A stretch of DNA of 64,000 nucleotides from Patescibacteria group bacterium (lineage in GTDB: Bacteria; Patescibacteriota; Patescibacteriia; UBA1558; GWA2-36-10). The notes under the pieces are model-generated. The model did no database searches, was not told the origin of the DNA, and worked only from the letters and a program-made list of their open reading frames with translations. This document shows, piece after piece, positions 14,624 to 40,408 of the stretch. Position numbers and translations under genes: made by a program. Every line of letters begins with the position of its first letter. Within the stretch, counting starts at the first letter, position 1. The DNA lies in assembly GCA_041665505.1 (NCBI GenBank), contig JBAYIR010000001.1, positions 147,108 to 211,107 of the forward strand. Reading direction: 5' to 3'.

Positions 14624-14658
14624 GGAGGCAGCACTGCGGTGCTGCCTCCTGCCTTTTA
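14624..14658 (+). terminator. Intrinsic terminator of cassette 2 unit a
   Basis: An 11-bp stem with a 4-nt loop is followed by TGCCTTTTA. Confidence 0.65.
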
Positions 14659-14693
14659 CTTAATTTTAATTATAGTATTTTGTGTTTATTTAG

Positions 14694-14721
14694 TTGACAA
14701 AAAACTTATTTTAGGTTAATT
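14694..14721 (+). promoter_or_regulatory. Promoter of cassette 2 unit b (TTGACA-16-TTAATT)
   Basis: TTGACA lies at 14694-14699. The -10 element is weak. Confidence 0.35.
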
Positions 14722-14778
14722 TCTTTGGGCTTAGTGTTATTTCACAGTTGACTAGGACTCCAACGAAAGGATTCGAGC

Positions 14779-15093
14779 ATGTCCAAGCGTATGGTGGTTG
14801 TTCAACACAGCCATGTTATTGGAGTGTGTTCTGGTACCGTCAGAGTTGAGCGTCTGGAAAATGCTCAGACTGGCGTCCGTTTCAGGTTGAAGATTGGCAG
14901 TGAGCGTTCTGTCAGTAGCCCTGACATCGCAGAGCTGACCAGCTGTCTCAAAGACCAGGTCTTTGCTCGCCGTGTGAGCCAGGCTTTTACTATGGAGGCG
15001 CCGACTATTTCTTCTCTTCGACCAATGCTTCCCAAGTTCAAGGTGAAGTTCTTAGCCACGAAGGCTCGCCGTGACGAGGATCTGTTCGATTAA
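14779..15093 (+). CDS. Hypothetical 104-aa protein (high-GC cassette 2)
   Basis: The ORF is GC-rich with an AGGA RBS. No family is recognised. Confidence 0.45.
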   Translation: MSKRMVVVQHSHVIGVCSGTVRVERLENAQTGVRFRLKIGSERSVSSPDIAELTSCLKDQVFARRVSQAFTMEAPTISSLRPMLPKFKVKFLATKARRDEDLFD

Positions 15094-15115
15094 ATGTAAA
15101 AAATGGAGGAACTCC

Positions 15116-24781: not shown

Positions 24782-25335
24782 AACCTCTCGGTAAAATCAG
24801 ATAATTTTTCTGATAATGGCTCAATTCTTTTTAACCCATTCTTTATGATTGTTGGAGTTATTTTTAACTTTCTGAAATTTATCAGGCCATCAATTTTATT
24901 TGTTTTTACACTAACTCTTACATAACCATCTTTATCAAGAGTATACCATTTGGCGTGTGCTATTTTATTTCTCAAGACACATAAGTTATCAAGTTTATTT
25001 CTAAATTCTTTAATTTGAAGCAATTTTTGTTCTTTTCTCTTCTCCGCACAACATACTAATGGATAAACCAAATCATAGAAAAGTTCAATTTTTGATGAAA
25101 AATCTAAATTTTTTAATACCGCATATCCAGTGTCGTGTGAACCGTGACCCAATAATTCGGCAATTTCAATATCAAGTGTATGTTCGAGATTGCTGAATTC
25201 TATTAGGAATTTACCGATAAGAGGTGCATACTTATCTCTTTTTTTATACATCAAATCTTCATCAATATAATCATATTGGTCCAATCTTTCCAATTTTGTT
25301 TCTAAATCATTTTTGGGCTTAGCTCTTTTTTTCAT
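24769..25335 (-). CDS. HEPN-like protein (Rx4H motif), possible Abi/RNase
   Basis: The C-terminal LRNKIAHAKW matches the HEPN Rx4-6H signature. The gene overlaps the Nudix gene by 13 nt, so the two are co-transcribed. Confidence 0.4.
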   Translation of the reverse strand: MKKRAKPKNDLETKLERLDQYDYIDEDLMYKKRDKYAPLIGKFLIEFSNLEHTLDIEIAELLGHGSHDTGYAVLKNLDFSSKIELFYDLVYPLVCCAEKRKEQKLLQIKEFRNKLDNLCVLRNKIAHAKWYTLDKDGYVRVSVKTNKIDGLINFRKLKITPTIIKNGLKRIEPLSEKLSDFTERLWAQ

Positions 25336-25395
25336 AAGTGGCTTAATTTATTGTATTTTAACATAACTTAGTGTAAAGTAAAGTAAATTAGTAAT

Positions 25396-26667
25396 ATGAC
25401 TGTGCAGAAAAAAGAAACGTTTAAATACGAAGAAAAATCATACTATAAGCCTTTTGATTATATAAATAAAGACCTTGATTTGCTATTTATACTTATTTTC
25501 ATTGAAGAATTCAAGAGACAGAATAACGAACTTAACTTTGGCAATTTCTTTAAGGGTAATTACTGGGACATTGACCAAGTCAACGACGAGGTTATGGATA
25601 CAAATGATTATCAATCTGTGTCCGATATGGTACTTGAACAAGCCCTCTTCATCTTTGAGGATATAAGAATAGGTAAAATTATTGAAGTTGGCATTGATAA
25701 TACTGATGAATCTATTAAAGATTTACTTGTTGAAGTTGCAAAAATAGGGCCAGAGAATGCCAAAAAAGATGCACCAAACTATTATTATCCTTTTGAACAA
25801 CTATTTTTTATCGCTAACCAAGAACGAGAGGTAAGGCTAAAACAATTAGAACAAAATCCCGATTTAGATATAGGGATATTCTTAAAAGATAAAAGCGTCT
25901 TTTTCACTAAAGAGCACGGCTATTTCCGCGCCCTCCAACCTTTCATTATTGATATTCCGACACATATATTGATTAGGGTTAAATATAACGCAACAAAAAT
26001 AAAAGAAATTGAAAAAGAAATTTTTGATTATTTAGAAGATTTTTCTAATGATAAATATATAGAAAAATTGCCTCGCTATCAGGAAAAAAGATTGTATTTT
26101 GCTCAACAAATTGAAAATTTTTATCGTTATGTGAGCCGATTAAATTTAATTGGCGATACTATAAATATACCTTTTACCATTCTTAATGAGAGTGGTTTTG
26201 AAACAGTAAAAATACTTAGATTTTTAGAATTAAAAGAAGTTATAAAGATAAGATGGTCTGATGAAGGTTCTTGGAAGGTTCAATTTACTAAACTACCAAT
26301 TACTCCAGAAAGTTTATTGGGTATAAAATCAGAAAATGCTAAAACTTATACCAGTCTTAAGTCTGGCTTAGCTTATGATGAAACTAGCTCCACATTAACT
26401 ATTGGCGAATATAATATAAAAATAAATGGTCCAGACCAAAAAGATTTTATTAGAATTATTTTTAAGAATCAAAAAGAACTTAATAAAGAGTGGTTTTTTT
26501 CAGAAATTTGCGAGATATTTGACCCTGCGATGGATAATAATGATAAGAAGTTCTATAATGCGTCCTATCAGGTCAATCTAAAAATTGCTCAAAAAACTCT
26601 AATAAAAGATTTCCTATTAACAACAAAACATAGTGTTAGGGTTAATCCAAAATATATAAACAGCTAA
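25396..26667 (+). CDS. Hypothetical protein (423 aa)
   Basis: The ORF is long and AT-rich with no recognised family. A terminator hairpin plus TTTTTT lies at about 26686-26720. Confidence 0.5.
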   Translation: MTVQKKETFKYEEKSYYKPFDYINKDLDLLFILIFIEEFKRQNNELNFGNFFKGNYWDIDQVNDEVMDTNDYQSVSDMVLEQALFIFEDIRIGKIIEVGIDNTDESIKDLLVEVAKIGPENAKKDAPNYYYPFEQLFFIANQEREVRLKQLEQNPDLDIGIFLKDKSVFFTKEHGYFRALQPFIIDIPTHILIRVKYNATKIKEIEKEIFDYLEDFSNDKYIEKLPRYQEKRLYFAQQIENFYRYVSRLNLIGDTINIPFTILNESGFETVKILRFLELKEVIKIRWSDEGSWKVQFTKLPITPESLLGIKSENAKTYTSLKSGLAYDETSSTLTIGEYNIKINGPDQKDFIRIIFKNQKELNKEWFFSEICEIFDPAMDNNDKKFYNASYQVNLKIAQKTLIKDFLLTTKHSVRVNPKYINS

Positions 26668-26886
26668 GCCAACTTAGACCATTGATTTGATAACCTGTAG
26701 GTATAACAACCTACGGGTTTTTTATGCAGGAAATTGGCACAGACAAAAATATAGATACAAATCTTAAAATTAAAGACCTTCCTCTTGAGGATGGGCAGAA
26801 TTTGGTTAATGTTTTTGTTTGGCTTATCCAAGAAGATAAGAAGCAAAACCCTGAATTTTATCAATTTAATAAGCAAGAATAAATAT

Positions 26887-27999
26887 ATGATTGACACAAT
26901 ATGCCTTTTAATTCCTAAAGAAAATATGATTTATCTCTCGGGAGTAGCTACTTGGGAACTTTATTCTAAAACCGACCAATACGAAAAATATGTACGTAAT
27001 CCTAGTAAAGCAGAAAAAGAGACTGGTAAATACTTTCCTAGACTAACTGGGTACAAAAGACGCTACTCCCAAGATGCGAATGTTCGTATAGAATTTTCGG
27101 CTCCTAAGCTACTATACTTAAACAACTTGGATGAATTAGAAGATAAGGATTTTCCGAAAATAATTGAGGTCTTACAAGAAAGATTGGAAACTATGGGAGT
27201 AAGGGTTTTTAAGGTTATTCTTGAAAATGCCTGCGTAAGTTCAGTTCATTTTTCAAAAAATATCTTACTTCAAGACGGCTATACGTCAAATCATTTAATA
27301 TCAGAAATGAGTAAAATTGACCTCCGTAAAAACTTTGATTTTGCCAAAACTAGATTTATGAATGATGGTCAGAGCCTCTATGCTCATACAACTGCTCACC
27401 AATTTGTTATTTATGACAAAATAGCCGACCTCAACAAAGACAAAAAACGAGCAATTGATAAGGAACAAACAGGTTATCAAAGAAGTCTATTTGATGAGCT
27501 AAAAAAGGAAACGCAAGAAATAATACGTTTTGAAATCAGAATAAACCACAAACAAAAATTAAATAAACTTCTTGAGAGTTTTGGTTATAGGAAAAATCCA
27601 GTTTTTAAACAAGTATTTAATTCGGAAATGAGCCAGAAAATCGTTACCGATTATTGGGTAAAGCTTATTAAAAAAAGAAATCTTGGTATTTTTTCAATAT
27701 CATTGAGCCTAAAGGATGCCCTGCAAACATTATTTTTAGCAGATAAAACACTAAAACCTAAGCAAGCGGTTTATTTACTAGGACTTTTTATGCTAGCTAG
27801 AGATGAAAATGGTATACGACAACTACGGACTATCGTTTCAAAAAGGGCACGTGATAGGACTTGGTATCGTATAGCAAATGATATGCAACTGGCTAGTGAG
27901 TTAATCACTAAAAATAAAATTAGAGATTGGGTCACACAAATCGATAAAAATTTAGAAAATTATAAACCCTATAAAAGAAAAGATTATGAAAATAAATAA
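26887..27999 (+). CDS. Hypothetical protein, possibly a replication-initiation (Rep_trans-like) protein of the mobile element
   Basis: The start is moved to the ATG at 26887 (MIDTICLLIPKE...). The family assignment is weak and by eye only. Confidence 0.45.
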   Translation: MIDTICLLIPKENMIYLSGVATWELYSKTDQYEKYVRNPSKAEKETGKYFPRLTGYKRRYSQDANVRIEFSAPKLLYLNNLDELEDKDFPKIIEVLQERLETMGVRVFKVILENACVSSVHFSKNILLQDGYTSNHLISEMSKIDLRKNFDFAKTRFMNDGQSLYAHTTAHQFVIYDKIADLNKDKKRAIDKEQTGYQRSLFDELKKETQEIIRFEIRINHKQKLNKLLESFGYRKNPVFKQVFNSEMSQKIVTDYWVKLIKKRNLGIFSISLSLKDALQTLFLADKTLKPKQAVYLLGLFMLARDENGIRQLRTIVSKRARDRTWYRIANDMQLASELITKNKIRDWVTQIDKNLENYKPYKRKDYENK

Positions 28000-28180
28000 A
28001 AATAAGATTAGCACTATTGAGCGGTTTCAGAAAGGTATGAGATTATCCCTCAAGCAGTATTATAAACAAGCTTTTTCTGAACGAGTTAAGAAAGGTTTGA
28101 TGGTAAAAAATAAGAAAAAATTATCCACTTTTGATTAAGTTGCAATGTAAAGCAGAGTAAAGTATAATGAACACAACAAT

Positions 28181-28699
28181 ATGTTGGTAGATAGCATACA
28201 AAAATACATATCATTGTATGATGCTGAAAGATATTTGTTTGAAGTTCTTGGTCCAAAGATAAGGGAGAACGGCTACATAACTTTCAAAGATTTTTATGAT
28301 ATATGTATGTGGAAATCAGCTAGGCAGAAACAAAATTATTTAAAGAATAAAGATGTAGTTGAAGAGATTACAAGAAAAGCATTGAATCAGAGTGATGAGA
28401 TTGATAGAATAAATACTTTACGTCAATTAAAAGGTGTTGAGATAAAAACAGCATCAGCAATTTTAACAATCATTTTTCCAGAGAAATATGCCGTTATGGA
28501 TGAGAGGTGCTTGGATATATTGATAGATTATGGTTTTCGGATTAGCAAATATCCGACTATTAAAACTTGGATACAATACATAGGAATAATGAGAAGTTTG
28601 GCCAAAGAAAATAATGTTAGCCCTAGAGAATTAGATATGGCCTTTTTTGCAATACATAGGGAAAAGTTAGAAAAGGCAAATTTTAAAAACTTATATTAG
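28181..28699 (+). CDS. Hypothetical protein (172 aa)
   Basis: The ORF has typical composition and sits within the element gene block. Confidence 0.45.
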   Translation: MLVDSIQKYISLYDAERYLFEVLGPKIRENGYITFKDFYDICMWKSARQKQNYLKNKDVVEEITRKALNQSDEIDRINTLRQLKGVEIKTASAILTIIFPEKYAVMDERCLDILIDYGFRISKYPTIKTWIQYIGIMRSLAKENNVSPRELDMAFFAIHREKLEKANFKNLY

Positions 28700-28705
28700 T
28701 AAATT

Positions 28706-28888
28706 ATGATAGCAAAAGAAAAAGATTTTTATAAAGCAGAAGACTTGGCCCGAGTATTAGAGGTAAACATTATGACAATTTACCGATATATAAAAGCAGG
28801 TCGACTAAAAGCATACAAAATAGGCCGTGAGTTTCGGATTGATAAAGCTGATTTTCAATCTTTCTTAAAAAAAGTTAGTACAAAATAG
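28706..28888 (+). CDS. Excisionase/MerR-like helix-turn-helix DNA-binding protein
   Basis: MTIYRYIKAGRLKAYKIGREFRI is a motif of the Xis-type HTH_17 family. Confidence 0.55.
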   Translation: MIAKEKDFYKAEDLARVLEVNIMTIYRYIKAGRLKAYKIGREFRIDKADFQSFLKKVSTK

Positions 28889-28890
28889 TT

Positions 28891-30678
28891 ATGACCGAAA
28901 GAGAATTATTACAACAAAAGGAGAACCATATTCTCAAACTTGAAAAAGAAATTGAGAAATGGAAAAAAGCAGTTAAAACTCAAAGATATGGTTTAGTATG
29001 GCTTGATGTGCCCGAAGCGTTTGAAGATGATGTTGAGAACAAATTGCCAATTCTTGAGGAAGTACCTAAAAAAGCTATAAAAAGTATAGACGAAAAACCT
29101 ACACATTTACTCATTGAGGGAGATAACTATCACGCACTTACTTGTTTGAATTACACACACAAAGGAAAGATAGATGTTATTTATATAGACCCACCATACA
29201 ACACGGGTTCGGATGGTTTTAGATATAAAGATAAAAGGATATTAGACCAATATCCCGATGGTACTGAAGTACCAAAAGACCATCCTTTTAGGCATAGCTA
29301 CTGGTTGTCTTTTATGAGTAAAAGATTGGAACTCGCAAAAAGTTTATTAAAAGATACTGGAACTATATTTATTTCAATTAACGAAGACGAATTCGCACAA
29401 CTAAAGTTACTTTGTGACAGAATTTTTGGTCTAGAAAATTATTTGACAATGTTTACTATTAAAGTACGGCACGAGGAGCGTATTCTCAAGGGGGATAAAG
29501 ATTTTCACGAGGTGGTTGAATATCTTTTATTGTACAGAAATTCATCTAACTATAAAACTATAAAAAAAATATATGATAATACTTCTCTAGATGAATATGT
29601 ATATCAGATTATTGAAAAAATAAAAAAACCTAAATCAGTTAAGCTTGGAAATAAAATAGTTGAGTATTTTGAACCATCGCAATATGAAATAAAAAAAGTT
29701 CCAGCAAGTGCAGATAATTTGAAAAAAATAAACATTCGGGGTTCTTTGAAAGAAGGAAATAGTAGTGGCAGATTTTATATGAATTATATCGCTTCTAGGG
29801 GCACTAAGGGAGTGTTGTATAAAGTGCCTAATATGGGAGCGGATAAGTTTGGTTATAGGTATTTTTTGATACCAGCTAAGGAAAATAGATTAAATGGAGA
29901 TTATTTTCAAGGCGTGCCTTTAGATATACAAGATACCAAAGAAGTGCCATATCCTAACTATTTTGACCTTGAAAAAGAGTTTAATAATGTTGGATATGAG
30001 GGAGGTGTTAATTTTGGAGGTGGAAAGAAACCTATAGATTTCCTTAGGCATTTTATTAACATTGGCTCTTTAAATAAAGATGCAATCATATTAGATTTTT
30101 TTGCTGGTTCAGGAAGTACAGGGCACGCAGTTATGCAGATGAATGAAGATGATGAAGGTCATAGGCAGTTCATTTTAGTCACAAATAATAATGAAATTGT
30201 AAAAGATAAAGTTTACCACCCAATGTCTGAAGCGTGTCTACCAAGAATAAAGAATGTGATTAAGGGTTATGATAAAAATCCAAGTTTGGGAAATTCAATC
30301 AAATACTATAAAACTTCTTTTGTTGGTAAACATAACATTCTTGATGCGGATGATAAGGATAAAATACAACTTGCTCATCACGCAGGCGAAATGCTTGCAA
30401 TAGCTGAAAATACCTTAGAGCAAATAAAGAAAAACGACTATTGGCAGATATTTGAAAATACAAACAGAATGACAGCTATATATTTCCGAGAAGAACAAGA
30501 TAGACTTGATGAATTTGTGAAAGAAGTTTTAGCACTCAAAAAACCAGTAACGGTGTATATGTTTAGTTGGGAAGAAAAGGTTGAAATTATCGATTTTGAA
30601 GACATTCACAACATAAGCCTAAAAACTATACCTCAGCCAATTCTTGAAATATATAAGCAGATATATAACATTATTTAG
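28891..30678 (+). CDS. mod: Type III R-M DNA methyltransferase (Mod, N6-adenine/N4-cytosine beta-class)
   Basis: The DPPYNTGSD motif (motif IV) precedes FFAGSGSTGHA (motif I), the circularly permuted order typical of Mod. The gene is followed by a Res helicase gene. Confidence 0.8.
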   Translation: MTERELLQQKENHILKLEKEIEKWKKAVKTQRYGLVWLDVPEAFEDDVENKLPILEEVPKKAIKSIDEKPTHLLIEGDNYHALTCLNYTHKGKIDVIYIDPPYNTGSDGFRYKDKRILDQYPDGTEVPKDHPFRHSYWLSFMSKRLELAKSLLKDTGTIFISINEDEFAQLKLLCDRIFGLENYLTMFTIKVRHEERILKGDKDFHEVVEYLLLYRNSSNYKTIKKIYDNTSLDEYVYQIIEKIKKPKSVKLGNKIVEYFEPSQYEIKKVPASADNLKKINIRGSLKEGNSSGRFYMNYIASRGTKGVLYKVPNMGADKFGYRYFLIPAKENRLNGDYFQGVPLDIQDTKEVPYPNYFDLEKEFNNVGYEGGVNFGGGKKPIDFLRHFINIGSLNKDAIILDFFAGSGSTGHAVMQMNEDDEGHRQFILVTNNNEIVKDKVYHPMSEACLPRIKNVIKGYDKNPSLGNSIKYYKTSFVGKHNILDADDKDKIQLAHHAGEMLAIAENTLEQIKKNDYWQIFENTNRMTAIYFREEQDRLDEFVKEVLALKKPVTVYMFSWEEKVEIIDFEDIHNISLKTIPQPILEIYKQIYNII

Positions 30679-30679
30679 T

Positions 30680-33055
30680 ATGAAAAACTTTAACCCATTA
30701 CAATTTCAAAAAACTGCCGTAGAAAATCTTACAGATATATTTATTTCGGTATGGAAGCAACAAGGCAGGCAATTGCCCATTGTTTTGAAATCACCAACTG
30801 GAAGTGGTAAAACGTTTATAACATCACTTTTTGTTCGTGGCCTTAACCATTTACCACAATGGAAAGAAGATAAGGCATTTATTTGGATTACTTTTAGTGA
30901 TGATTTGGCTATGCAGAGCAAAGGAAAATTTCTTGAGTATTTTGAAAATATGCTTGAAAATAGAACTTTAACTGTTGCAGATATAAATCAAGGCAAACTT
31001 TATCCAAATGATATTTTATTCTTGAACTGGCAAAAAGTAATAGCAAAAAATGCAGAGACAAGATTAATTCGTCGTCCAGAAGATGAGGAATGGGCAAAAG
31101 AAACTGGTAAGTACTTTGAAGATGTGATTGAACAAACTCAAGCAGATGGTAGACAAATCATTTTAATTATTGATGAAGCTCATAAAAATAAAGATACAAA
31201 ACTAGCAAAGGACATTATTGATAAAATTGACCCTAAAGTAATTCTTCACATTACAGCAACACCAAATGAAGCGGACGAGCTAAATTCTCGCCGTCTTGGT
31301 AGTTATTATGAAGTTCCAAGAAAAGAGGTAGTTGAGCAAGGGCTAATCAAAGAAGCGATTGTCACTCAAACAGAAGAAGATTTTCAGGGTATGTCAGGCA
31401 AAGACCTTGATGAAATTCTTCTTGAAAATGGAATAAATAAACGAGAAGAGTTAAAAGCCGAATTTAGTGCACTTGGAAAAAATATAAATCCCTTGATGTT
31501 GATACAGATACCAAATGATGATAGTAAACTAATTGAAAAAGGTGAACAAACAAAGGAAGAAATTGTTATAGATTATCTTATTAAGATGAAAGTGCCTAAA
31601 CATAAAATTGCCAAATGGTCTAAGGGACAAGATAAACCAAAAGGACTAGAAGACAATGATGATGAACACGATTTTCTTATTTTTAAACAAACTGCTGGTA
31701 CTGGTTGGGATTGTCCTCGTGCATCTGTACTTGTGATGTTTAGAGAAATACAATCAAATACTTTTTATACTCAAACGGTTGGACGTATTTTGAGAATGCC
31801 AGAACCTCAAGCTAGGGAAGATTATAAAAATAATCCTAATCTTCGCTTGGGTTATTTATATACAAATTATAAACGTAAGGAAGTGGTTATACCAGACCAA
31901 AATCCTGCAAATAAACCACTAACAGAAACTGCCCATCGGAAAAATGGTATAAATAATATAGAGTTATCTTCAGATTATATCTCTCGTTTGGACTACGGTG
32001 ATATTCGCGTATCATCAAAATTTCAAGAGGTATTTAAAACAGAGCTTAATAAACATTTTGGAATTACAAGTAGTGATATTTTAGGTAAAGCTGAAATAAA
32101 GTTAAAAAAAGCAGGCTTAGACCTGACAGATACTTTAGTAAATGAAGTTATAGCCAATGCTCGTTTTGAGGATTACGACAATCTCGCCTTTGATTTTAAA
32201 AAGAAAGGTAGCGATGTTTCTCTTGAAATGTCGGTAAGTGATATTGAAAAAACTTTTAATTATCTTTGTTACCAAATTTTAAAAGAACAAGAAGATAGTA
32301 AGGCTAAATACTCAAATGTTGCTCGTTCTTGGTCGGTGCTAAAACAAGCACTTCGTGTTTGGTTTAAAACTGTTTTAAAAGATGACCATATTTATTGGTA
32401 TAAGATATTTATTAAAGATGTTCGTAAGGGTGCAGAAAGTAAATTTCGTCCAGCAATAACAAAAGCACTTAGAGCTTATAAACCAATATCAGACAGTTTG
32501 CTTGTTGAAAAGAAAAGGAAAGTGGAAGAAAAAGAGTCATATATTTTTACCATACAGAATGAGTATCAATACCCAGAAGATTATAAGATTGTGCCTCAAA
32601 AATTATGTGTCTTAGATAAATTTTATTTACCCGAAGATTATAATGGGCGTAAAAATGAAATTGCTTTTGTTGAGTATCTAGAAAAGAAGAAAGGGAAGAT
32701 TGATTGGTGGTTCAAAAACGGCAATCAAGGTAAAAAATATCTTGGTATTAAATATACAAACTCATCCACAAAAGAAGAAGACTTGTTTTACCCTGATTGG
32801 ATTATTAGTTTTTCAGATGGTCGTATAGGTATTTTTGATACAAAAAAGGGTAATACATTGTTCGATTTTGGAACACCAGAAAAGGCAGATGCACTACAAA
32901 AAAAACTTAGGGTATTTGGCAAAAAGTTTATAGGTGGCATTGCCTACCAAGAAGGAGTTATTTGGTATTACAATGACAGTCCAAAATACTCTTTTAAGGA
33001 AGGAGAATCAGTAAATGACAATAAGCAATGGAAGCCTTTTGAAGATTTATTTTAA
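30680..33055 (+). CDS. res: Type III restriction enzyme Res subunit (SF2 helicase/nuclease)
   Basis: Walker A (PTGSGKT) and a DEAH box (IIDEAHKN) are present. The protein is large and lies downstream of mod. The start is moved to the ATG at 30680. Confidence 0.75.
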   Translation: MKNFNPLQFQKTAVENLTDIFISVWKQQGRQLPIVLKSPTGSGKTFITSLFVRGLNHLPQWKEDKAFIWITFSDDLAMQSKGKFLEYFENMLENRTLTVADINQGKLYPNDILFLNWQKVIAKNAETRLIRRPEDEEWAKETGKYFEDVIEQTQADGRQIILIIDEAHKNKDTKLAKDIIDKIDPKVILHITATPNEADELNSRRLGSYYEVPRKEVVEQGLIKEAIVTQTEEDFQGMSGKDLDEILLENGINKREELKAEFSALGKNINPLMLIQIPNDDSKLIEKGEQTKEEIVIDYLIKMKVPKHKIAKWSKGQDKPKGLEDNDDEHDFLIFKQTAGTGWDCPRASVLVMFREIQSNTFYTQTVGRILRMPEPQAREDYKNNPNLRLGYLYTNYKRKEVVIPDQNPANKPLTETAHRKNGINNIELSSDYISRLDYGDIRVSSKFQEVFKTELNKHFGITSSDILGKAEIKLKKAGLDLTDTLVNEVIANARFEDYDNLAFDFKKKGSDVSLEMSVSDIEKTFNYLCYQILKEQEDSKAKYSNVARSWSVLKQALRVWFKTVLKDDHIYWYKIFIKDVRKGAESKFRPAITKALRAYKPISDSLLVEKKRKVEEKESYIFTIQNEYQYPEDYKIVPQKLCVLDKFYLPEDYNGRKNEIAFVEYLEKKKGKIDWWFKNGNQGKKYLGIKYTNSSTKEEDLFYPDWIISFSDGRIGIFDTKKGNTLFDFGTPEKADALQKKLRVFGKKFIGGIAYQEGVIWYYNDSPKYSFKEGESVNDNKQWKPFEDLF

Positions 33056-33058
33056 TTT

Positions 33059-34654
33059 ATGAAAGCAATAAATGTCTCAAGAGTATCAACCGAAGAACAA
33101 AAAGAAGCTGGTAATTCTTTGCCTGCTCAGATTGAACGTGTAGACGCTTATTGTAAGAGAAAAGATTTTGAAGTTATTAAATCTTTTAGTTTTGATGAAA
33201 GTGCTTATAAAGATAAGCGAGATGAGTTTGATAAACTACTTGAGTATGTTCAAAAAATAGCCACAAAGGAAAAGGTGGCTGTTTGTTTTGATAAAGTAGA
33301 CAGACTTTCAAGAAGTGTATTTGATAAGAGAGTTGCCGTATTTTATCAAATGGCTTTAGAAGATAAAATAGAGTTGCATTTTGTTTCAGACAATCAAATC
33401 ATAAACGGAAAATTATCGGCAACAGAAAAAAGTGGATTTGGTATGAGCCTTGTAATGGCTAGTTACTATTCAAATGCAATAAGTGATAATGTTAAGAGAG
33501 CATTTGAGCAAAAAAGACGTAATGGAGAATGGACAGGGCAAGTACGCTTAGGGTATTTAAACGTTAGTTTAGACCAAGCAAAAAGATTACGCAAAGACAT
33601 TATCATAGACCCAGACAAAGGGCATCTTATACAGAAAATGTTTGAACTCTATGCTACTGACCAATACTCTTTGAAAACCTTGCAAATTAAAATTAGTGAG
33701 CTTGGTTTGAGAACTCGCTATGGAAATAAACTTTCATTAAGTGGCATAGAAAAAATCATTAAGGACAGTTTTTATTGTGGTATTGCTATGTCAACAAAGT
33801 ATGGTTCTTATGCCCATAAATATCCTCGTTTAATATCAAGAGAACTCTTTGATAAGTGCCAACAGATACGCACCAAACGCAATAAAATGCCCTATAAGGC
33901 ACACTCTAAGGACTTTATGCTAAAAGGCCTGTTAAGATGTAATAATTGTGGTTGTTTAATGAGCCCTCAAAAACAGACTAAGAAAAGTGGACTTGAATTT
34001 ATCTATTATACTTGTACGAATGCCAAAGGTATATGCAAAAAAATATATATACCAGAAAAAGACCTTTTAAAACCAATCTATGATGTTTTAGAAAGATTTG
34101 AGAGTATAAGTGAGGAAGTACAGAATGGTCTTGTTGAGGAATTACGCAAATGTACCGAAATAGAAGTAGTATTTCATAAGGCACAAATAAATCGTATTCG
34201 AACAGATTATGATAATTTAAAAGCGAAGCAAAATAGACTTCTTGATGCATTTTTAGACCAGAGTATTACTAAGGACATCTATGACAAGAAACATCAAGAG
34301 TATCAAGACCAAATACAAACTTTAGAAATTGAAATGTCTGAACATCAGAAAGCAGATTTTGATTACAAAACTACTGTCGCTACAGTCATTTCCGTAGCAC
34401 GCAGAGCAAAAACTATATTTGAAAATAGTTCTGAAGTTGCTGGAAAAAGAACATTTTTGAGTTACATACTTCAGAACCCGATTGTAACAGGTAGAATACT
34501 TACCTTTGACCTCAAAAAACCCTTTGATTTAGTGCTAAGTCTTGCTGATAACCAAAGAAAAAAGACTATCGTTTCTGATAGTCATCTTTCTTGGCTCGGG
34601 GACAGGGATTCGAACCCCGGTTGGCTGGACCAAAACCAGCTGTCCTACCACTAG
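33059..34654 (+). CDS. Large serine recombinase (integrase)
   Basis: The N-terminal resolvase domain carries the catalytic Ser (NVSRVSTEEQ). A recombinase domain, a zinc ribbon (CNNCGC...YYTC) and a coiled coil follow. The last roughly 63 nt overlap the tRNA-Gln on the opposite strand. Confidence 0.85.
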   Translation: MKAINVSRVSTEEQKEAGNSLPAQIERVDAYCKRKDFEVIKSFSFDESAYKDKRDEFDKLLEYVQKIATKEKVAVCFDKVDRLSRSVFDKRVAVFYQMALEDKIELHFVSDNQIINGKLSATEKSGFGMSLVMASYYSNAISDNVKRAFEQKRRNGEWTGQVRLGYLNVSLDQAKRLRKDIIIDPDKGHLIQKMFELYATDQYSLKTLQIKISELGLRTRYGNKLSLSGIEKIIKDSFYCGIAMSTKYGSYAHKYPRLISRELFDKCQQIRTKRNKMPYKAHSKDFMLKGLLRCNNCGCLMSPQKQTKKSGLEFIYYTCTNAKGICKKIYIPEKDLLKPIYDVLERFESISEEVQNGLVEELRKCTEIEVVFHKAQINRIRTDYDNLKAKQNRLLDAFLDQSITKDIYDKKHQEYQDQIQTLEIEMSEHQKADFDYKTTVATVISVARRAKTIFENSSEVAGKRTFLSYILQNPIVTGRILTFDLKKPFDLVLSLADNQRKKTIVSDSHLSWLGDRDSNPGWLDQNQLSYH

Positions 34655-34665
34655 ACGATCCCCGA
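34592..34665 (-). tRNA. tRNA-Gln (anticodon UUG)
   Basis: The minus-strand read is TCGGGGATCGTCTAGTGGTAGGACAGCTGGTTTTGGTCCAGCCAACCGGGGTTCGAATCCCTGTCCCCGAGCCA. It has a 7-bp acceptor stem (U1-A72), an anticodon stem GCTGG/CCAGC with loop TTTTGGT, a T-loop TTCGAAT, discriminator G and an encoded CCA. Confidence 0.8.
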
Positions 34666-34795
34666 ATATTGTATAAAACAAAAAAATTATAGTATATATT
34701 TAATTTTTAGTCAATGGAAAGAGGACCCCGAGACGCTATGTAGCATCATGTATTCGGGGCCCCCTTGTCGGTCAGCTGGTTGTCCTAGCTAGTAG

Positions 34796-35029
34796 CTAGT
34801 CCAGCCAGCTATCGCCGGTCGGATCGCAGCAGTTGTCTTCCATCATGATCTGCCAGATGCAGATCCAACCGAAGCGGTTGAAGCCGAACTCGAGTGCCAG
34901 GTCGCATCCCCAGGGCATGAGCCCACCGGCGTGGGCAGTCCGGGGCACCGTGGCGATACCCAGAGCCGTGATCAGGGTAATGGTCGCGAGGACCCTCCCG
35001 ATCTTCTTTTTCAGGCTTTTCGGAAACAT
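34796..35029 (-). CDS. Small secreted Cys/Trp-rich peptide precursor (77 aa; predicted 43-aa mature peptide)
   Basis: A Sec-type signal peptide (MFPKSLKKKIGRVLATITLITALGIATVPRTAHA|GG) is present. The mature part GGLMPWGCDLALEFGFNRFGWICIWQIMMEDNCCDPTGDSWLD contains 4 Cys. An RBS-like GAGGG lies 5 nt upstream. The gene sits in high-GC cassette 3. Confidence 0.45.
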   Translation of the reverse strand: MFPKSLKKKIGRVLATITLITALGIATVPRTAHAGGLMPWGCDLALEFGFNRFGWICIWQIMMEDNCCDPTGDSWLD

Positions 35030-35110
35030 GGTTTCCCTCTCTGTGGGGTGTGGTGTTGTGGCTGTTTACCACAACAAGTTAGCCGGAGTCTTATCCTCCT
35101 CTCTGGTAAA

Positions 35111-35776
35111 CTATTTGAAGTCTACCTTGACACGGTGATCTTCCACCACCAGTTTGTCTGTGGTGGTTACCCTCAAAACCTCCATGCCGAAGTAGGAGCT
35201 TGGTAGCCTCACCAGAACCACGTTAGGCAGGTCGGGTGAAGCACCTTTGTTGAACTTGTTGTCCATTCTGACTGGACCATCGCGGGTGTCTTTCCAATCA
35301 TCGGACGGACGATGTTTCTTGATGCAGATGATGCCGATATCCGGTACCTGGATTTCGCTGCCATCACCACCTCTGATGGTAAAGATCAATGCTCCAACCT
35401 CGTTGAAGAGTAGGTCAACTTGGTCAGGAATATACACACCAAGCCTGTAGACTATGACCTGCTCGCGTGCCAATGTGGCACTCAATTTGAGACTGGGTAT
35501 CTCATCGACCATGATTTCAAGCTGCTCTTTGATAAACTCTACCCGTTCTTCTCGTTGTAGTCTACGACCTCTTTGCCTTTCTTCTATTTGGATGGCCGTG
35601 CCAAGTTGAGGTTTCAGGTTATCGATGGGCCTGCTCCAGCTTTCATTGTAGCCAGAGAAGATCAGGACACCATCAGGAGTCTGGTTGATAGGAACGAAGT
35701 TGGCCTTGGCTTGTGCAACTGTGCTAGCGAGTAGCATCAGGCCGAGACACGCGAGAAACATGAATGTGTTTCGCAT
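35111..35776 (-). CDS. Hypothetical secreted protein (221 aa, Sec signal)
   Basis: The signal peptide MRNTFMFLACLGLMLLASTVAQA is present. The ORF is GC-rich. Its start overlaps the upstream stop (TAATG), so it is translationally coupled to the lipoprotein gene. Confidence 0.55.
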   Translation of the reverse strand: MRNTFMFLACLGLMLLASTVAQAKANFVPINQTPDGVLIFSGYNESWSRPIDNLKPQLGTAIQIEERQRGRRLQREERVEFIKEQLEIMVDEIPSLKLSATLAREQVIVYRLGVYIPDQVDLLFNEVGALIFTIRGGDGSEIQVPDIGIICIKKHRPSDDWKDTRDGPVRMDNKFNKGASPDLPNVVLVRLPSSYFGMEVLRVTTTDKLVVEDHRVKVDFK

Positions 35777-36057
35777 TAGCGATTACCTCTCTGCGGGTTA
35801 GGGTTCTTCGCATCCAGATTCTTGGTGTTGAAGACCGAGTTCTGGACTCTTGCTTCTGCATCAGCAATAGCTTCGCAACGCCAGGTGCCGTCTTTGTTGA
35901 CACACCGGTAGCTCTTACCATCTACAACGAAGACCTTGGTACTGTCAGGGATGACAGTGGTGTCACGAAACTGTGGGTGGTAGCTGTAACCACAACCAGT
36001 GATTAAGACCAGCATCAGGATGACGCCGATCAATTTGACGACGATTTTTTCAAACAT
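35776..36057 (-). CDS. Hypothetical lipoprotein (93 aa)
   Basis: A lipobox LITGC follows the hydrophobic N-terminus. A strong RBS AAGGAGG lies 6 nt upstream of the ATG. The gene is first in the operon. Confidence 0.55.
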   Translation of the reverse strand: MFEKIVVKLIGVILMLVLITGCGYSYHPQFRDTTVIPDSTKVFVVDGKSYRCVNKDGTWRCEAIADAEARVQNSVFNTKNLDAKNPNPQRGNR

Positions 36058-36139
36058 GCGGCGCCTCCTTAGTGGCGTTTTGCTTGGCGTTTTGCTCTTA
36101 CTGCGATTCGTGTTGTTAGAGAACTGTTATGCTAATTTC

Positions 36140-36190
36140 ATTATACATAAAATAACACTTAATTCAAGTATATTTCTTTATTTTTGTCAA
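36140..36190 (-). promoter_or_regulatory. Promoter region for the lipoprotein operon (minus strand): TTGACA, then TTGAAT-16-TATAAT
   Basis: On the minus strand, TTGACAAAAATAAAGAAATATACTTGAATTAAGTGTTATTTTATGTATAAT is present. A roughly 75-nt leader contains the tandem 11-bp repeat GCAAAACGCCA x2. Confidence 0.45.
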
Positions 36191-36202
36191 TAGATAAGTT
36201 AT

Positions 36203-36285
36203 GAAAATAAAGGTGGGGCTCGTCACACAACTGGGGGGAGTGTTGAAGTGACGAGCCCCGGTCTGCCCTCTAGGGGCAGTTTTTT
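36203..36285. terminator. Bidirectional intrinsic terminator between the two cassette-3 transcription units
   Basis: A 12-bp stem GGGGCTCGTCAC...GTGACGAGCCCC (36215-36259) is followed on the minus strand by ACCTTTATTTTC. On the plus strand, CTGCCC-tctag-GGGCAG is followed by TTTTTT (36263-36285). Confidence 0.6.
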
Positions 36286-36334
36286 GGTAGCTCTATACAG
36301 CTACGCAAGAGAAGACAATAAGACTAGTGTCTGG

Positions 36335-36400
36335 CTACTTCCTGAGCCACCAGAACAGATCCAGGAGCGCCAGCCCCATGAAGATCACTTCGTAATGCAT
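36335..36400 (-). CDS. Putative 21-aa hydrophobic micro-protein (MHYEVIFMGLALLDLFWWLRK)
   Basis: A perfect SD AAGGAGGTG lies 5 nt upstream of the ATG. One predicted TM helix. It sits between the receiver-like gene and the terminator. It is not in the ORF track because it is under 60 aa. Confidence 0.3.
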   Translation of the reverse strand: MHYEVIFMGLALLDLFWWLRK

Positions 36401-36449
36401 TATGCCACCTCCTTTCATACAATGGGAGTCTCACCCCCCAGTTGTATGA

Positions 36450-36854
36450 TCAGTGGTTGGCCATGCTCAACTGGTGAACGTAGTCAACCAGACGACCGAC
36501 ATTGAGCGGTTTGGGCATACAGAAGACCCCATACTCGCTCATCAGCCGTTCGATCTTGGTGTTGGGGTAGCGGTGGCTCATAGCCAGGGTGGTGATGTGC
36601 ACGCCAGCAGAGGTGAGAATCTCCATGAACCTCTCACTGTCGACATCCAGACACTCGATGATGATCACGTCAGGCAGAGGATCCCAGTTCAGCATCTTGC
36701 GGATCACCTTCGTGGTGTCGAGTTGAGCTCTGTAGATCTGGCCGTCAACCTGCTCGATGTTGGTCAGGACTTCATGTCCTTCGGACTCCAGGCCAAAGGC
36801 CATGGTCATGGCCGTATCCGGGTCGCTGTCGAAGATGAAAACGCGCTTCTTCAT
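36450..36854 (-). CDS. Stand-alone CheY-like receiver (REC) domain protein, atypical
   Basis: The N-terminal acidic pair is VFIFDSDPD. A KP motif (FCMPKPL) and a Thr (HITTLA) occupy the expected positions. The phospho-acceptor position appears to be Glu in DVIIIE (alignment by eye). An RBS AGGAG is present. The plus-strand ORF 36453-36872 is judged an antisense artefact. Confidence 0.4.
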   Translation of the reverse strand: MKKRVFIFDSDPDTAMTMAFGLESEGHEVLTNIEQVDGQIYRAQLDTTKVIRKMLNWDPLPDVIIIECLDVDSERFMEILTSAGVHITTLAMSHRYPNTKIERLMSEYGVFCMPKPLNVGRLVDYVHQLSMANH

Positions 36855-36875
36855 GGTTTTGCTCCTAGCTGAAGT

Positions 36876-36943
36876 GTCGGTTACGCTACTGGCTCAGGAT
36901 TGTCCAAGCGTCCAAATACAGACAATCCGTCTTCGCCTCACTC
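36876..36943 (+). repeat. Cassette-3 direct repeat copy A (about 67 bp, internal 7-bp dyad GATTGTC-N16-GACAATC)
   Basis: GTCGGTTACGCTACTGGCTCAGGATTGTCCAAGCGTCCAAATACAGACAATCCGTCTTCGCCTCACT. It lies 22 nt 5' of the REC gene start when read on the minus strand. Confidence 0.7.
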
Positions 36944-36974
36944 AGTCTCTCCTGTGTCGCCGATGAAGCTGATT

Positions 36975-37145
36975 TCAGTCAGACAGGCCTTTCTGTAGGG
37001 CTTTGGCCAGTTCATCTTCGTTCAGGTGACGCGTCGCAAACCTGACCTGCCGATACAATACCTTGGTATCGTAGTCCAGGTTTTCGTTGAGCCGGGCAAT
37101 GTGCTCTTGCACAATCTTGATATTCCGCCGGTGTTGGGGGCTCAT
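36975..37145 (-). CDS. Hypothetical 56-aa protein (MSPQHRRNIKIVQEHIARLNENLDYDTKVLYRQVRFATRHLNEDELAKALQKGLSD)
   Basis: An RBS AGGGAG lies 11 nt upstream of the ATG. The ORF-track start at 37178 is rejected. It is preceded by repeat copy B and an extended -10 (TGTTATACT). Confidence 0.35.
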   Translation of the reverse strand: MSPQHRRNIKIVQEHIARLNENLDYDTKVLYRQVRFATRHLNEDELAKALQKGLSD

Positions 37146-37223
37146 AGTATTCACACTCCCTGTTTTTGGGTAACACAAAACACCTCAAAGAGGCGTTTTG
37201 GCTAAGTATAACACAGCAAAAGT

Positions 37224-37290
37224 GCCGGTTACGCTACTAGCTCCAGATTGTCCAAGCGTCCAGATACAGACAATCCTTCTTCGCCTCACT
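37224..37290 (+). repeat. Cassette-3 direct repeat copy B
   Basis: GCCGGTTACGCTACTAGCTCCAGATTGTCCAAGCGTCCAGATACAGACAATCCTTCTTCGCCTCACT. It is about 90% identical to copy A. Confidence 0.7.
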
Positions 37291-37387
37291 GCTTCTCTTA
37301 TTTTGGTAAAGAACTTAGTTTACAAAAAAATACCCTTTCAGGCATTTCTGTAAATTAAGCTCTCAATATTGAGATTTATTACGCAAT

Positions 37388-37454
37388 GCCGGTTACGCTA
37401 CTAGCTCCAGATTGTCCAAGCGTCCAGATACAGACAATCCTTCAAAGCCTCATT
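37388..37454 (+). repeat. Cassette-3 direct repeat copy C
   Basis: It is identical to copy B over the first 54 nt (GCCGGTTACGC...GACAATCCTTC), and the tail then diverges. It lies just downstream (on the minus strand) of the ZIP gene stop and a TTGACA motif at 37505-37510. Confidence 0.7.
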
Positions 37455-37514
37455 GAATGATATTTATTGTAAATTATTAATACCCTACCACATAATTTTT
37501 ATTTTGTCAAGACC

Positions 37515-38800: not shown

Positions 38801-40408
38801 ATGAAAATATCTGATGAAATCATTCTACTTTATAAAAAATTAGAACAGATTTATAAAAAAAAGGAGCTTTTGGCTCAAGAAGAAAATTTAATAGAAGTTG
38901 AAGAAATTGCTAGCCATTTTTCAGCCCTCTATGAAAAACTTAGAAATACTGTTGATTTTAAAGAGATTCATCTCCTCAGGCGTTTTGCTATTGAGAGAAA
39001 TTTGAAACGTCGTTTTATTATGGAGACTCTCAAACCAAATATTGCTCAGGCTTTGGTAGAAGATTTGGTCCGCTCTCGTTATTTACCAAATAAAATCATA
39101 CCTGAATATAGAATTGGCCAAATAGAAAAGATTATTGAAAAATACAATGATTTATTTCTGTTGATGAATGATCTCTATCATGGTGATGAGATCAAAGAAT
39201 ATTTTGATTGGTTGATTGGTGTGGAAGCTTGTGAAATAGATATTTTACTTAATCCAGAAGATATTGATGATGCGGTCATCGAGACTATGTATCAGATTAC
39301 CAAACCACGCGTCAAACTCAAAGGCGATGATGATCCAAATATCAGAGAAAAGAATCTACAATTATATATTTCTATTCATAAAGCTATAGTTAAATCAGAT
39401 GATACCATTATATCATTTCATCTTTTGAATTTATTTTATGATGAGTGGCTAAATGCCGACGCCGATACTATCAAGGTGATGGCTAGTCATTTGCCAGCCA
39501 TTTATAAAAATATTCAGTATCATGTTAAGCACCCTTACCAACGTCGAATACTTAAGTCAATCAAAAAACCAATAGTTACTTTTAAGATTCTTCACGAATT
39601 GATTTTGGAACATGGTAGTAATATGAAAGAACTCTTGGCCAATCCAGACAAATTGGAGTCGGAAGCCAAAATATTGATTAATAGAAAATATAAAAGCATT
39701 AGAAATAGGATATCTCGTGCTTCAGTCAGAGCTATTATTTATATTTTTATTACCAAAGCAATGTTGGCATTACTTTTGGAATTTCCATATGAAATGTATG
39801 TGGTAAAAGAAATAAATTATACCAACTTAGGTATCAATATATTATTTCCACCTTTATTGATGTTTTTAGTCACTTTGACTATCAAACCGCTGGGTGATAA
39901 AAATACTGAATTGATATTAGATAGTTTGCATAATGTGGTTTATAATCAGCCAGAGAAATCTATTTTGTGTCAGTTAAAAACTAAATATAATAAAAATCTT
40001 AGTTATCAAGTATTTTATTATTTTATGTATACAGTTCTTTATATTGTAGTTTTTGGAGCGATTGTATATTTCCTTAGACGTTTGAATTTTAATTTACTAA
40101 GTGGAGGAATATTTTTATTTTTCTTGACAGCGGTTAGTTTCTTTTCCATCCGTATTAGATCAACCGCTAAAGAATTGATGGTAGAGAATAAAAAAGAAGG
40201 TGTTTTATCGTTTTTTATAAACTTTTTTGCTCTGCCGATTGTTTCCGCTGGACGTTGGATGTCCACTAAATTTAAGAGTATTAATCTTTTCGCTTTTATT
40301 ATGGATTATATAATTGAAGCGCCTTTCAAACTTTTTGTAGCGGCTTTTGAGGATTGGCTGGGTTTTATGAAAGAGAAAAAAGACGAAGTTTTTCATGAGG
40401 ACCAATAA
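38801..40408 (+). CDS. Hypothetical membrane protein (535 aa; C-terminal TM helices)
   Basis: The ORF is long with typical composition. No family is recognised. Confidence 0.5.
   Translation: MKISDEIILLYKKLEQIYKKKELLAQEENLIEVEEIASHFSALYEKLRNTVDFKEIHLLRRFAIERNLKRRFIMETLKPNIAQALVEDLVRSRYLPNKIIPEYRIGQIEKIIEKYNDLFLLMNDLYHGDEIKEYFDWLIGVEACEIDILLNPEDIDDAVIETMYQITKPRVKLKGDDDPNIREKNLQLYISIHKAIVKSDDTIISFHLLNLFYDEWLNADADTIKVMASHLPAIYKNIQYHVKHPYQRRILKSIKKPIVTFKILHELILEHGSNMKELLANPDKLESEAKILINRKYKSIRNRISRASVRAIIYIFITKAMLALLLEFPYEMYVVKEINYTNLGINILFPPLLMFLVTLTIKPLGDKNTELILDSLHNVVYNQPEKSILCQLKTKYNKNLSYQVFYYFMYTVLYIVVFGAIVYFLRRLNFNLLSGGIFLFFLTAVSFFSIRIRSTAKELMVENKKEGVLSFFINFFALPIVSAGRWMSTKFKSINLFAFIMDYIIEAPFKLFVAAFEDWLGFMKEKKDEVFHEDQ

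Follow-up and report, generated by a model that had tools for sequence, protein, structure and literature searches.

An island of high GC content in a 64,000-nt stretch of DNA from a Patescibacteria (Candidate Phyla Radiation, CPR) bacterium (contig JBAYIR010000001.1, positions 147,108 to 211,107 of the forward strand; the whole stretch is called the window below) is probably a gene module controlled by cyclic di-GMP (c-di-GMP). Three riboswitch aptamers, named C, B and A in the order of transcription, lie in one mRNA leader and operon; a gene for a protein of 56 amino acids (aa) stands between B and A, and a gene for a CheY-like receiver follows A. After the receiver comes a structured RNA unit enclosing a very short open reading frame (micro-ORF), and then a trio of genes for exported proteins in a separately promoted operon. 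Coordinates are positions in the window. The island genes, and the promoters and RNA elements described with them, are read on its minus strand.

By a composition scan the island covered about 34,720-37,300 at 47-57% GC, with local peaks of 70%, in a window with a mean of about 32%. A first-pass annotation, made from the sequence alone, had described a GC-rich minus-strand cassette of six open reading frames (ORFs) here. All six (56, 134, 21, 93, 221 and 77 aa, from high to low coordinate) were found in their places, with a GC content at third codon positions (GC3) of 0.56-0.86 versus 0.24-0.30 in eight surrounding host genes. Plus-strand ORFs (139 aa, 101 aa and others) were rejected as the real genes: the GC3 pattern, the ratio of nonsynonymous to synonymous substitution rates (dN/dS) and amino-acid conservation all favoured the minus strand.

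Three direct repeats of about 84 nt, C (37378-37461), B (37214-37297) and A (36866-36948), matched the class-II c-di-GMP riboswitch model RF01786 over its full length (1-84; Rfam E = 1e-12 to 4e-14). Scores were 71.7 bits for C (E = 3.8e-14), 65.2 bits for B and 66.7 bits for A, the Rfam gathering score being 53.5 bits; our own model R1 gave 101.8 bits for C and 94.7 bits for B, the first and second members of a tandem pair. Variant families of the same Rfam clan scored lower on the repeats, and no other Rfam family accounted for the region. Covariation was assessed in eight sequences, the window's three and five from related loci. Base-pair cells were paired in 89% of cases and compensatory changes on both sides were seen in 14 of 29 pairs (P1, P1b and P2), values reached by 0 of 500 shuffles; with slid 3' partners, 30-40% were paired. 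In the pseudoknot, which joins the P2 loop to the single strand on the 3' side (GGACGCU with AGCGU..CC), 7/7 pairs were formed in 8/8 sequences. Its pairs are invariant and so show no covariation in this set, and its letters differ from the Rfam consensus (GGGCAC/GUGC..CC) yet remain complementary. Judging from these matches, repeats A, B and C are c-di-GMP-II riboswitch aptamers, an identity that makes c-di-GMP the predicted regulatory input and gives the module a named putative ligand. The first-pass annotation had seen the three repeats correctly and had taken them for anonymous cis-elements. Integron attC or other recombination sites were considered and rejected, since the ends of the repeats do not pair with each other in the order RYYYAAC...GTTRRRY expected of attC, and the riboswitch model accounts for the repeats. 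In several relatives an additional hairpin of 20-60 nt interrupts the P2 loop of the second tandem aptamer (L003 8452-8595; L089 9758-9886; L090 1729-1834; L007 1-101, where L numbers denote related loci), and some of these aptamers fall below the Rfam gathering score as a result. The aptamer pattern gave no match in viral contigs.

Each member of the tandem pair is followed by an expression platform. That of C (37311-37362) is a long AT-rich hairpin, the top of which (37324-37347) forms a AAAUGCCU/GGGUAUUU stem followed by U7 in minimum-free-energy folds; the same type of platform was found in L003, L089, L090 and L095. The platform of B (37171-37213) contains a conserved UGUUAUACU segment and a terminator, AAAACGCCUC-UUU-GAGGUGUUUU (37177-37199), with a U-rich tail. 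C and B are thus each predicted to have an intrinsic terminator of their own. The 5' arm of the B terminator, CGCCUC, is complementary to the 5' segment of the aptamer, GAGGCG. When transcripts were truncated just before the 3' arm of the terminator and folded to minimum energy, an antiterminator pairing these two segments was formed in five riboswitches. The paired segments co-vary (B, GAGGCG:CGCCUC; L095, GAGACG:CGUCUC; L003 and L007, GAGACAGU:AUUGUCUC; L090, UGAGGC:GCCUCA). Over nine riboswitches the mean antiterminator pairing energy was -8.7 kcal/mol for cognate and -6.6 kcal/mol for non-cognate partners, a result matched by 53 of 20,000 random assignments. The aptamer finds its complement in the 5' arm of the terminator and not in the 3' arm, and this complementarity covaries; from this we infer that the B-type switches are OFF switches, for which the evidence is good in B-type platforms and weak in C-type ones. 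Aptamer A is placed differently. It abuts the Shine-Dalgarno sequence (SD) AGGAG (36862-36866) of the receiver gene, and the 3' strand of its P1 ends on the first base of that SD.

Transcription of this unit may start from a candidate promoter at 37482-37510, which consists of TTGACA (37505-37510), a 17-nt spacer and TGgTAGGGT. The TTGACA had been reported earlier and is present, and the -10 hexamer is weak, so that the site was missed by a consensus scan; the equivalent site in L003 reads TTGACA-17-TAATAT. A second promoter element, an extended -10 formerly proposed in repeat B, is probably part of the riboswitch. The motif concerned, TGTTATACT (37205-37213), sits in the B platform between P1 and the terminator and is kept there in relatives, where its equivalent pairs with the aptamer segment GUAACC in the ligand-free fold. 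Its location inside a riboswitch platform and its conservation suggest that it probably acts as RNA rather than as a promoter.

The gene downstream of aptamer A (36450-36854) encodes a single-domain CheY-like receiver of 134 aa. A profile of its family (22 members) matched 151 receivers in the PDB over their full length (best E = 5e-10), and 8 of the 22 members matched Pfam Response_reg (PF00072) individually. The hallmarks of the fold are present: D9-S10-D11 after beta1, S93 (Thr in relatives) after beta4 and K115-P116 after beta5. Glu67 (in IIIECLDVD) aligns with the phospho-acceptor Asp of PhoP ('LIVLD'), and because Glu67 replaces this Asp the protein is classed as an aspartate-less receiver and not as a canonical phospho-receiver; the earlier proposal of an atypical CheY-like receiver is borne out. 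Some distant members of the family keep Asp at this site. About 13 residues are inserted between beta2 and beta3, and no kinase gene lies near the receiver. The family is small: searches of 1.84 billion and of 5.8 billion proteins gave 11 representatives and 7 clusters, respectively, and a metagenome scan with the receiver alignment recovered only two loci. The 56-aa protein encoded between B and A (36975-37145, SD GGGAG) is helical, and homologues 38-55% identical to it occupy the same position in L003, L005, L006 and L007. It had no family or PDB match (Pfam, NCBIfam, PHROGs, PADLOC, PDB profile search). A histidine phosphotransfer role was rejected, as the alignment contains no invariant His.

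About a dozen related loci were recovered (L003-L008 and L089-L096), and in about ten of them one or more riboswitches and a receiver gene were found at the same site upstream of tRNA-Gln. Wherever upstream DNA was available, an aptamer preceded the receiver (11/11 receiver loci checked). Receiver and exported trio occur together in the window, L003, L005, L006, L007, L090/L094 and L095, and in a variant form in L091. The parts thus recur together in relatives, with one exception (L089, weighed below), and the trio is under purifying selection, in agreement with the earlier description of a system-like multi-gene module. The number of aptamers and the accessory genes vary. L095 has two each of aptamers, micro-ORF units and Cys-peptide genes, besides an Asp-type receiver, a 94-aa lipoprotein and a 228-aa protein. 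In L090/L094 (L094 being on an 860-kb contig), Zip is followed by two aptamers, the receiver, a third aptamer with a terminator, a promoter and a diverged trio. Behind a single aptamer and the receiver, L091/L092 have a micro-ORF unit, genes for a 340-aa protein, a lipoprotein of 208 aa and a Cys peptide of 65 aa, and the tRNA; the 208-aa lipoprotein is possibly related to the 221-aa family of the window (61% probability). L005 and L006 start within an aptamer and continue with a Glu-type receiver, a protein of 58-65 aa, an Asp-type receiver, a 235-aa lipoprotein, a 64-aa membrane protein, a promoter and the trio. L007 and L004 carry the trio, L007 with genes for 55 and 141 aa in addition on a contig that starts within its P2-insertion aptamer. 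L096 contains one aptamer and an Asp-type receiver. L089, from a Komeilibacteria metagenome-assembled genome (MAG), shows the order Fur-Zip, two aptamers, receiver, two micro-ORF units, 235-aa lipoprotein and tRNA-Gln.

L003 is a 99% relative of the window with the same synteny and two aptamers. Outside 37303-36450 the two DNAs are 94-97% identical, and the receivers inside this block are only 32% identical. The block (L003 8443-9328) comprises aptamers B and A together with the genes for the small protein and the receiver, at 32-52% aa identity. This difference marks a recombinational swap running from just downstream of the platform of C (37303) to the stop codon of the receiver. The conserved RNA elements may act as recombination anchors.

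Between the receiver and the trio a structured RNA element (36203-36449) encloses a micro-ORF (36335-36400) for the 21-aa peptide MHYEVIFMGLALLDLFWWLRK. Related micro-ORF units with strong SDs lie between the receiver and the genes that follow it, twice each in L089 and L095 and once in L091. The C-terminus, ...L(I/L)DLFWWLRK followed by the stop codon, is conserved and is kept through synonymous changes (Arg AGG/CGC/CGT; Leu CTC/CTG/TTG/TTA), from which the 21-aa ORF is judged to be a real conserved micro-protein, as the first-pass annotation had supposed. The WWLRK motif was not found elsewhere in the window nor in about 90 other loci examined. The element consists, in order, of a pre-ORF hairpin, the SD AGGAGG, the ORF, a stop-codon hairpin, an anti-SD CUCUU, hairpin H2, a hairpin at 36263-36279 and a large terminator hairpin T (36215-36259), after which follows CCUUUAUUUUC. 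Fold z-scores of the element were -6.3 and -3.7; the value of -6.3 belongs to the hairpins at 36215-36259 and 36263-36279, in line with a terminator proposed at 36203-36285. In the consensus fold both H2 and T showed compensatory changes, and AGGAG paired with CUCYU in an SD:anti-SD helix. Over 15 nt in the window, the loop of T (CCCCCCAGUUGUGUG) can pair with the pre-ORF segment CAUACAACUGGGGGG, and these partners change together between units (mean -21.9 kcal/mol for cognate and -14.8 kcal/mol for non-cognate pairs; matched by 2 of 720 permutations). No Rfam family matched the element. In L090/L094 the same slot holds a riboswitch and a terminator, which suggests a gating role for the micro-ORF unit.

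The trio (unit two) is preceded by a promoter in an AT-rich stretch, TTGAAT-16-TATAAT at 36140-36167, which was recovered by the consensus scan within the interval proposed earlier (36140-36190). The promoter region aligns in L004-L008, and L091 and L095 share its motif. The first gene (35776-36057) encodes a predicted 93-aa lipoprotein precursor with the lipobox LITG/C (the slash marking the predicted cleavage site), in which I-T-G-C meets the pattern [LVI][ASTVI][GAS]C; G21-C22 and the pair Cys52/Cys61 are invariant in seven loci. A TAATG overlap, by which translation of the two would be coupled, joins it to the gene for a 221-aa predicted Sec-exported protein (35111-35776; cleavage motif VAQA/KA) with a conserved C-terminal half and nine family members among 5.8 billion proteins. 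The third gene (34796-35029) encodes a 77-aa precursor with a predicted Sec signal that is rich in Lys (cleavage motif AHA/GG) and a mature peptide of about 43 aa with four conserved Cys and the C-terminal motif NCCDPxGDxW (eight loci aligned); it is duplicated in L095. The signal motifs of the 221-aa (MR...VAQA/KA) and 77-aa (K-rich...AHA/GG) proteins, judged by eye against the pattern expected of Sec signals (n-region basic, h-region hydrophobic over 15-16 residues, AXA at the cleavage site), are conserved in the alignments. The lipobox, the overlap, the secreted protein and the Cys/Trp peptide had all been noted before, and all are present. Pairwise dN/dS against the window sequence was 0.11-0.20 for the lipoprotein, 0.14-0.26 for the 221-aa protein and 0.11-0.51 for the 77-aa precursor, which indicates purifying selection on functional minus-strand genes. 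The unit ends in a GC-rich hairpin (34717-34769; -36.4 kcal/mol, z = -4.9) just upstream of the tRNA-Gln promoter, which was itself recovered by the consensus scan.

Searches of Pfam, PHROGs, PADLOC and NCBIfam with the six island products and the accessory proteins of the relatives gave nothing significant, and PDB profile searches with the 221-aa, 93-aa, 77-aa and 56-aa families were likewise without a significant match (best E = 0.016, on a signal or transmembrane segment). AlphaFold2 models of the 221-aa protein had a mean predicted local distance difference test score of 46.8 (full length, 7 sequences) or 48.0 (mature part, 9 sequences). No relative of the 221-aa family was found in the GTDB representative genomes; genome binning probably loses such short GC-rich contigs.

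The following mechanism is proposed. Without ligand, the 5' segment GAGGCG of a B-type aptamer would pair with the 5' arm of the terminator to form the antiterminator; with c-di-GMP bound, this segment would be locked in P1, the terminator would form and expression would be OFF. A serial arrangement of two such switches would make the response sharper. At low c-di-GMP more receiver would then be made; this protein would be constitutively 'active-like', its activity being set by abundance and not by phosphorylation. The micro-ORF/RNA unit, or the riboswitch in L090, would gate read-through into the exported-protein operon. The trio would most likely act at the cell surface, which is the default expectation because surface functions are the usual output of c-di-GMP signalling. 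The envelope signalling module suggested in the first-pass annotation was vaguer than this scheme and closer to the evidence than its other suggestion, a toxin with its immunity protein.

Several observations weigh against parts of this scheme. Aptamers B and A have A in place of the consensus U in the internal-loop 'UGA', the window receiver alone had no significant Pfam match, and L089 has a receiver and riboswitches without the trio, the sole exception among loci with enough sequence. A motif scan of the 64-kb window found no GGDEF, EAL, HD-GYP or PilZ gene, the only GG[DE]EF match being a chance GGEEF in acetate kinase. The C-type antiterminator is weak (-7.1 and -2.6 kcal/mol). The link of the trio to c-di-GMP is indirect in the window, since the operon has its own promoter after a strong terminator. 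The polarity may also be the reverse: the same riboswitches could be ON switches, so that at high c-di-GMP the receiver would be induced and read-through would bring up the surface proteins as well, in a programme of attachment or sessile life. Adhesion factors are usually promoted by c-di-GMP, and the receiver SD was more accessible in silico with aptamer A enforced (0.87-1.0) than in the free fold (0.43-0.66), a weak indication. The Clostridioides difficile cmrRST riboswitch, moreover, activates transcription upon binding c-di-GMP (PMC12548384). An ON design is nevertheless considered rather unlikely, because the terminators do not overlap the 3' strands of the aptamers (the gap is 15 nt for B) and the complementarity of the terminator 5' arm to the aptamer, with its covariation, is the design of an OFF switch. 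A different role for unit two, that of a secreted four-Cys peptide toxin or bacteriocin with an immunity lipoprotein, regulated by unit one, would suit a small Sec-signal peptide with conserved cysteines that is encoded near a lipoprotein, duplicated in L095 and part of a variable, mosaic locus; immunity lipoproteins are known for lantibiotics. Most bacteriocins are cationic, whereas the mature peptide is anionic (7 Asp/Glu versus 1 Arg, net charge about -6). No maturation, ABC-export or modification genes were found at any locus, no transporter or immunity family was detected in the Pfam, NCBIfam, PADLOC and PHROGs searches, dN/dS of 0.1-0.5 gives no sign of diversifying selection, and the conserved partner is the 221-aa exported protein and not a membrane immunity protein. 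The toxin-immunity idea of the first-pass annotation thus gained no positive evidence, and we regard it as improbable.

The micro-ORF unit (36203-36449) may instead be a selfish element of its own, resembling a type I toxin-antitoxin system or derived from a phage, that lies between the two operons without regulating the module; this alternative is to be taken seriously, although it is held somewhat less likely than not. A tiny ORF with a strong SD in a conserved RNA structure, the predicted SD:anti-SD helix, the 5'-3' long-range pairing, tandem Trp codons near the stop and a terminator directly afterwards are shared with type I toxin mRNAs (ldr/rdl, hok/sok, fst) and attenuators (trpL, tnaC), and the helix and long-range pairing resemble translationally locked type I toxin mRNAs in particular. 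The hydrophobic peptide of 20-22 aa ending in WWLRK occurs in tandem copies in L089 and L095, and Escherichia coli LdrA, encoded in tandem ldr/rdl repeats, ends in ...SWWRNRK. A DNA-pattern scan also found micro-ORFs ending in ...(V/L)IDLFWWLRK in three GC-rich IMG/VR contigs of 56-64% GC (L097 7777-7843; L099 about 6840-6897; L100 2680 to about 2745), in early regions adjoining genes for DNA primase or RecT/Bet-like proteins; a GC-rich hairpin follows each copy, and none is accompanied by a riboswitch. The likeness to Ldr is, however, confined to the C-terminal motif, and the peptide includes Asp/Glu and has only about 15 hydrophobic residues. Type I systems include a cis-encoded antisense RNA; the promoter scan found no antisense promoter or small RNA, the only hint of one being a plus-strand terminator-like hairpin at 36263-36279. 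In CPR loci the units always occupy the slot between receiver and exported genes, which in L090/L094 is filled by a riboswitch and terminator. Conservation is not confined to regulatory codons but takes in the last 10-13 residues of the peptide. A literature search on the peptide motifs found no papers. A further alternative concerns the island as a whole, as cargo of an integrative element with a serine recombinase or as an assembly chimera from a GC-rich organism. The gap in GC3 (0.56-0.86 against 0.25 in host genes), the adjoining tRNA and recombinase, and the occurrence of the module alone on short GC-rich contigs would fit either version. The recombinase with its low-GC element lies on the 3' side of the tRNA, however, and the island on the 5' side; relatives without a recombinase (L089, L091 and L094) carry the module at the same syntenic site; and no second copy of the tRNA-Gln 3' end was found within the window. 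The junctions recur in independent assemblies. In one of them (run SRR6484324) positions 34593-37252 are 100% identical, which shows that neither the island nor its junction with the tRNA is an assembly artefact; the ends of that contig fall within one aptamer repeat and at the end of the tRNA, and contigs break within repeated aptamers, not at GC boundaries. Cargo or chimera is accordingly very hard to credit, and the serine recombinase was rejected as the integrase of the island, being part of a distinct low-GC element across the tRNA. The earlier placement of the module next to a recombinase is revised to that extent; its position between tRNA-Gln and the Fur/ZIP genes stands.

The preferred reading of a c-di-GMP-controlled module combines parts of known kinds. 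Tandem c-di-GMP-II doublets and triplets have been described as two complete riboswitches in series, each with a terminator, an arrangement termed 'pseudo-cooperative' (Sherlock et al., 2022; PMC9481103), and the tandem pair of the window is built likewise. Its aptamers share P1, P1b, P2, the pseudoknot and a full-length match above the gathering score with known c-di-GMP-II riboswitches. They differ in host (Patescibacteria/CPR instead of a Clostridium relative), in the genes controlled (a stand-alone receiver and uncharacterised proteins instead of surface-anchor proteins), in a third aptamer inside the operon after an ORF, in the predicted OFF polarity and, in some relatives, in the P2-loop insertions of 20-60 nt. 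In C. difficile cmrRST a c-di-GMP riboswitch leader precedes two response regulators, one of which, CmrT, carries Glu in place of the phospho-acceptor together with a D-G-D motif and is presumed to be governed by its expression level (PMC12548384). The window shares with this system a riboswitch leader and an aspartate-less receiver with Glu and with D-x-D instead of DD, and L005 and L006 also pair one Glu-type with one Asp-type receiver. Unlike those of cmrRST, the receivers here have no DNA-binding output domain and are accompanied by neither a kinase gene nor an invertible switch; no sequence relation is detectable beyond the receiver fold, and the cmr riboswitch is an ON switch. With CheY, Spo0F, DivK and aspartate-less receivers the family has in common a profile spanning the whole fold, the acidic residue after beta1, Ser/Thr after beta4 and Lys-Pro after beta5; it is set apart by Glu67, by some 13 additional residues between beta2 and beta3 and by its restriction to a few Patescibacteria. 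Tandem c-di-GMP-II riboswitches and aspartate-less receivers are thus known (PMC9481103, PMC12548384), and the novelty lies in finding them combined, in CPR bacteria, with stand-alone receivers, a private set of exported products and a structured micro-ORF element.

Much of bacterial diversity belongs to the Patescibacteria, and to our knowledge almost nothing is known of how they regulate surface functions or host attachment; targeted searches of the literature library available found no report of c-di-GMP signalling in them. The module gives a named ligand and a testable logic to otherwise unannotatable genes, namely a receiver family and three exported families with about ten known members each. 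It extends the pairing of riboswitch and aspartate-less receiver, as in cmrRST, to stand-alone receivers, and natural riboswitch parts expected to work in CPR genomes could be of use for controlling expression. The micro-ORF/RNA element forms a lead of its own, which extends to phage genomes. A bolder pair of linked ideas is put forward as a long shot. Patescibacteria, ultra-small and probably episymbiotic, may possess a self-contained c-di-GMP circuit in which riboswitches, and not kinases, set the dose of phosphorylation-independent receivers that control lineage-specific surface or secreted proteins; if their reduced genomes lack diguanylate cyclases of their own, the circuit might read the c-di-GMP of the host cell. 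The micro-ORF, with its covarying pairing of pre-ORF segment and T loop, may in turn represent an undescribed class of RNA gate that is coupled to translation, or else a new family of type I toxins, common to CPR bacteria and phages of GC-rich hosts.

The island lies in a variable slot between tRNA-Gln (34592-34665, minus strand) on one side and, on the other, a conserved host gene for a 535-aa multi-pass membrane protein (38801-40408), here followed by the zur-zupT pair (a Fur-family gene and a ZIP transporter gene), which borders the island. The 535-aa gene adjoins the locus in all relatives (L003, L089, L091 and L094), and its product had no Pfam or NCBIfam match. The CTP synthase of the window is 86-89% identical to those of four Patescibacteria MAGs and about 62% identical to those of Peribacteria, which identifies the host as a CPR bacterium. 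The module appears to spread by recombination among Patescibacteria lineages that differ in GC content, with the site next to tRNA-Gln as a hot spot. This is suggested by the codon-usage gap, by the L095 contig, which is 52% GC throughout, by the less GC-rich island of L090/L094 (33-43% GC) and by the mosaic of window and L003. An rRNA source of the high GC content was rejected, none being found by Rfam.

Two more GC-rich islands were seen in the window, at 4000-7000 and 14000-15100 (49-55% GC, GC3 0.54-0.72). The former contains a 737-aa multi-pass membrane ORFan (4409-6622) and the latter ORFans of 155 and 104 aa. These ORFans had no match in Pfam, PHROGs or PADLOC, and neither island holds a c-di-GMP-II aptamer or a WWLRK micro-ORF. 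The low-GC integrative element beyond the tRNA (about 25100-34654) encodes an N6/N4 DNA methylase, a ResIII/SNF2 helicase, an HTH_17 protein and a large serine recombinase of 531 aa, and the last 21 codons of the recombinase gene are the antisense of the 3' part of tRNA-Gln. A secreted protein of 340-443 aa, absent from the window, was found beside the module in L090 (4036-5250, minus strand), L091 (6746-7768) and L095 (3157-4488, minus strand); its copies are 26-30% identical and give a faint DUF5128 (six-bladed propeller) signal. The 235-aa lipoproteins form an alternative cargo in L005 (1227-1934), L006 (1368-2066) and L089 (10942-11649). Their C-terminal tails are Cys-rich and hydrophobic in L005 and L006 and Gly/Ala-rich in L089, and each is followed by a membrane protein of 64-78 aa.

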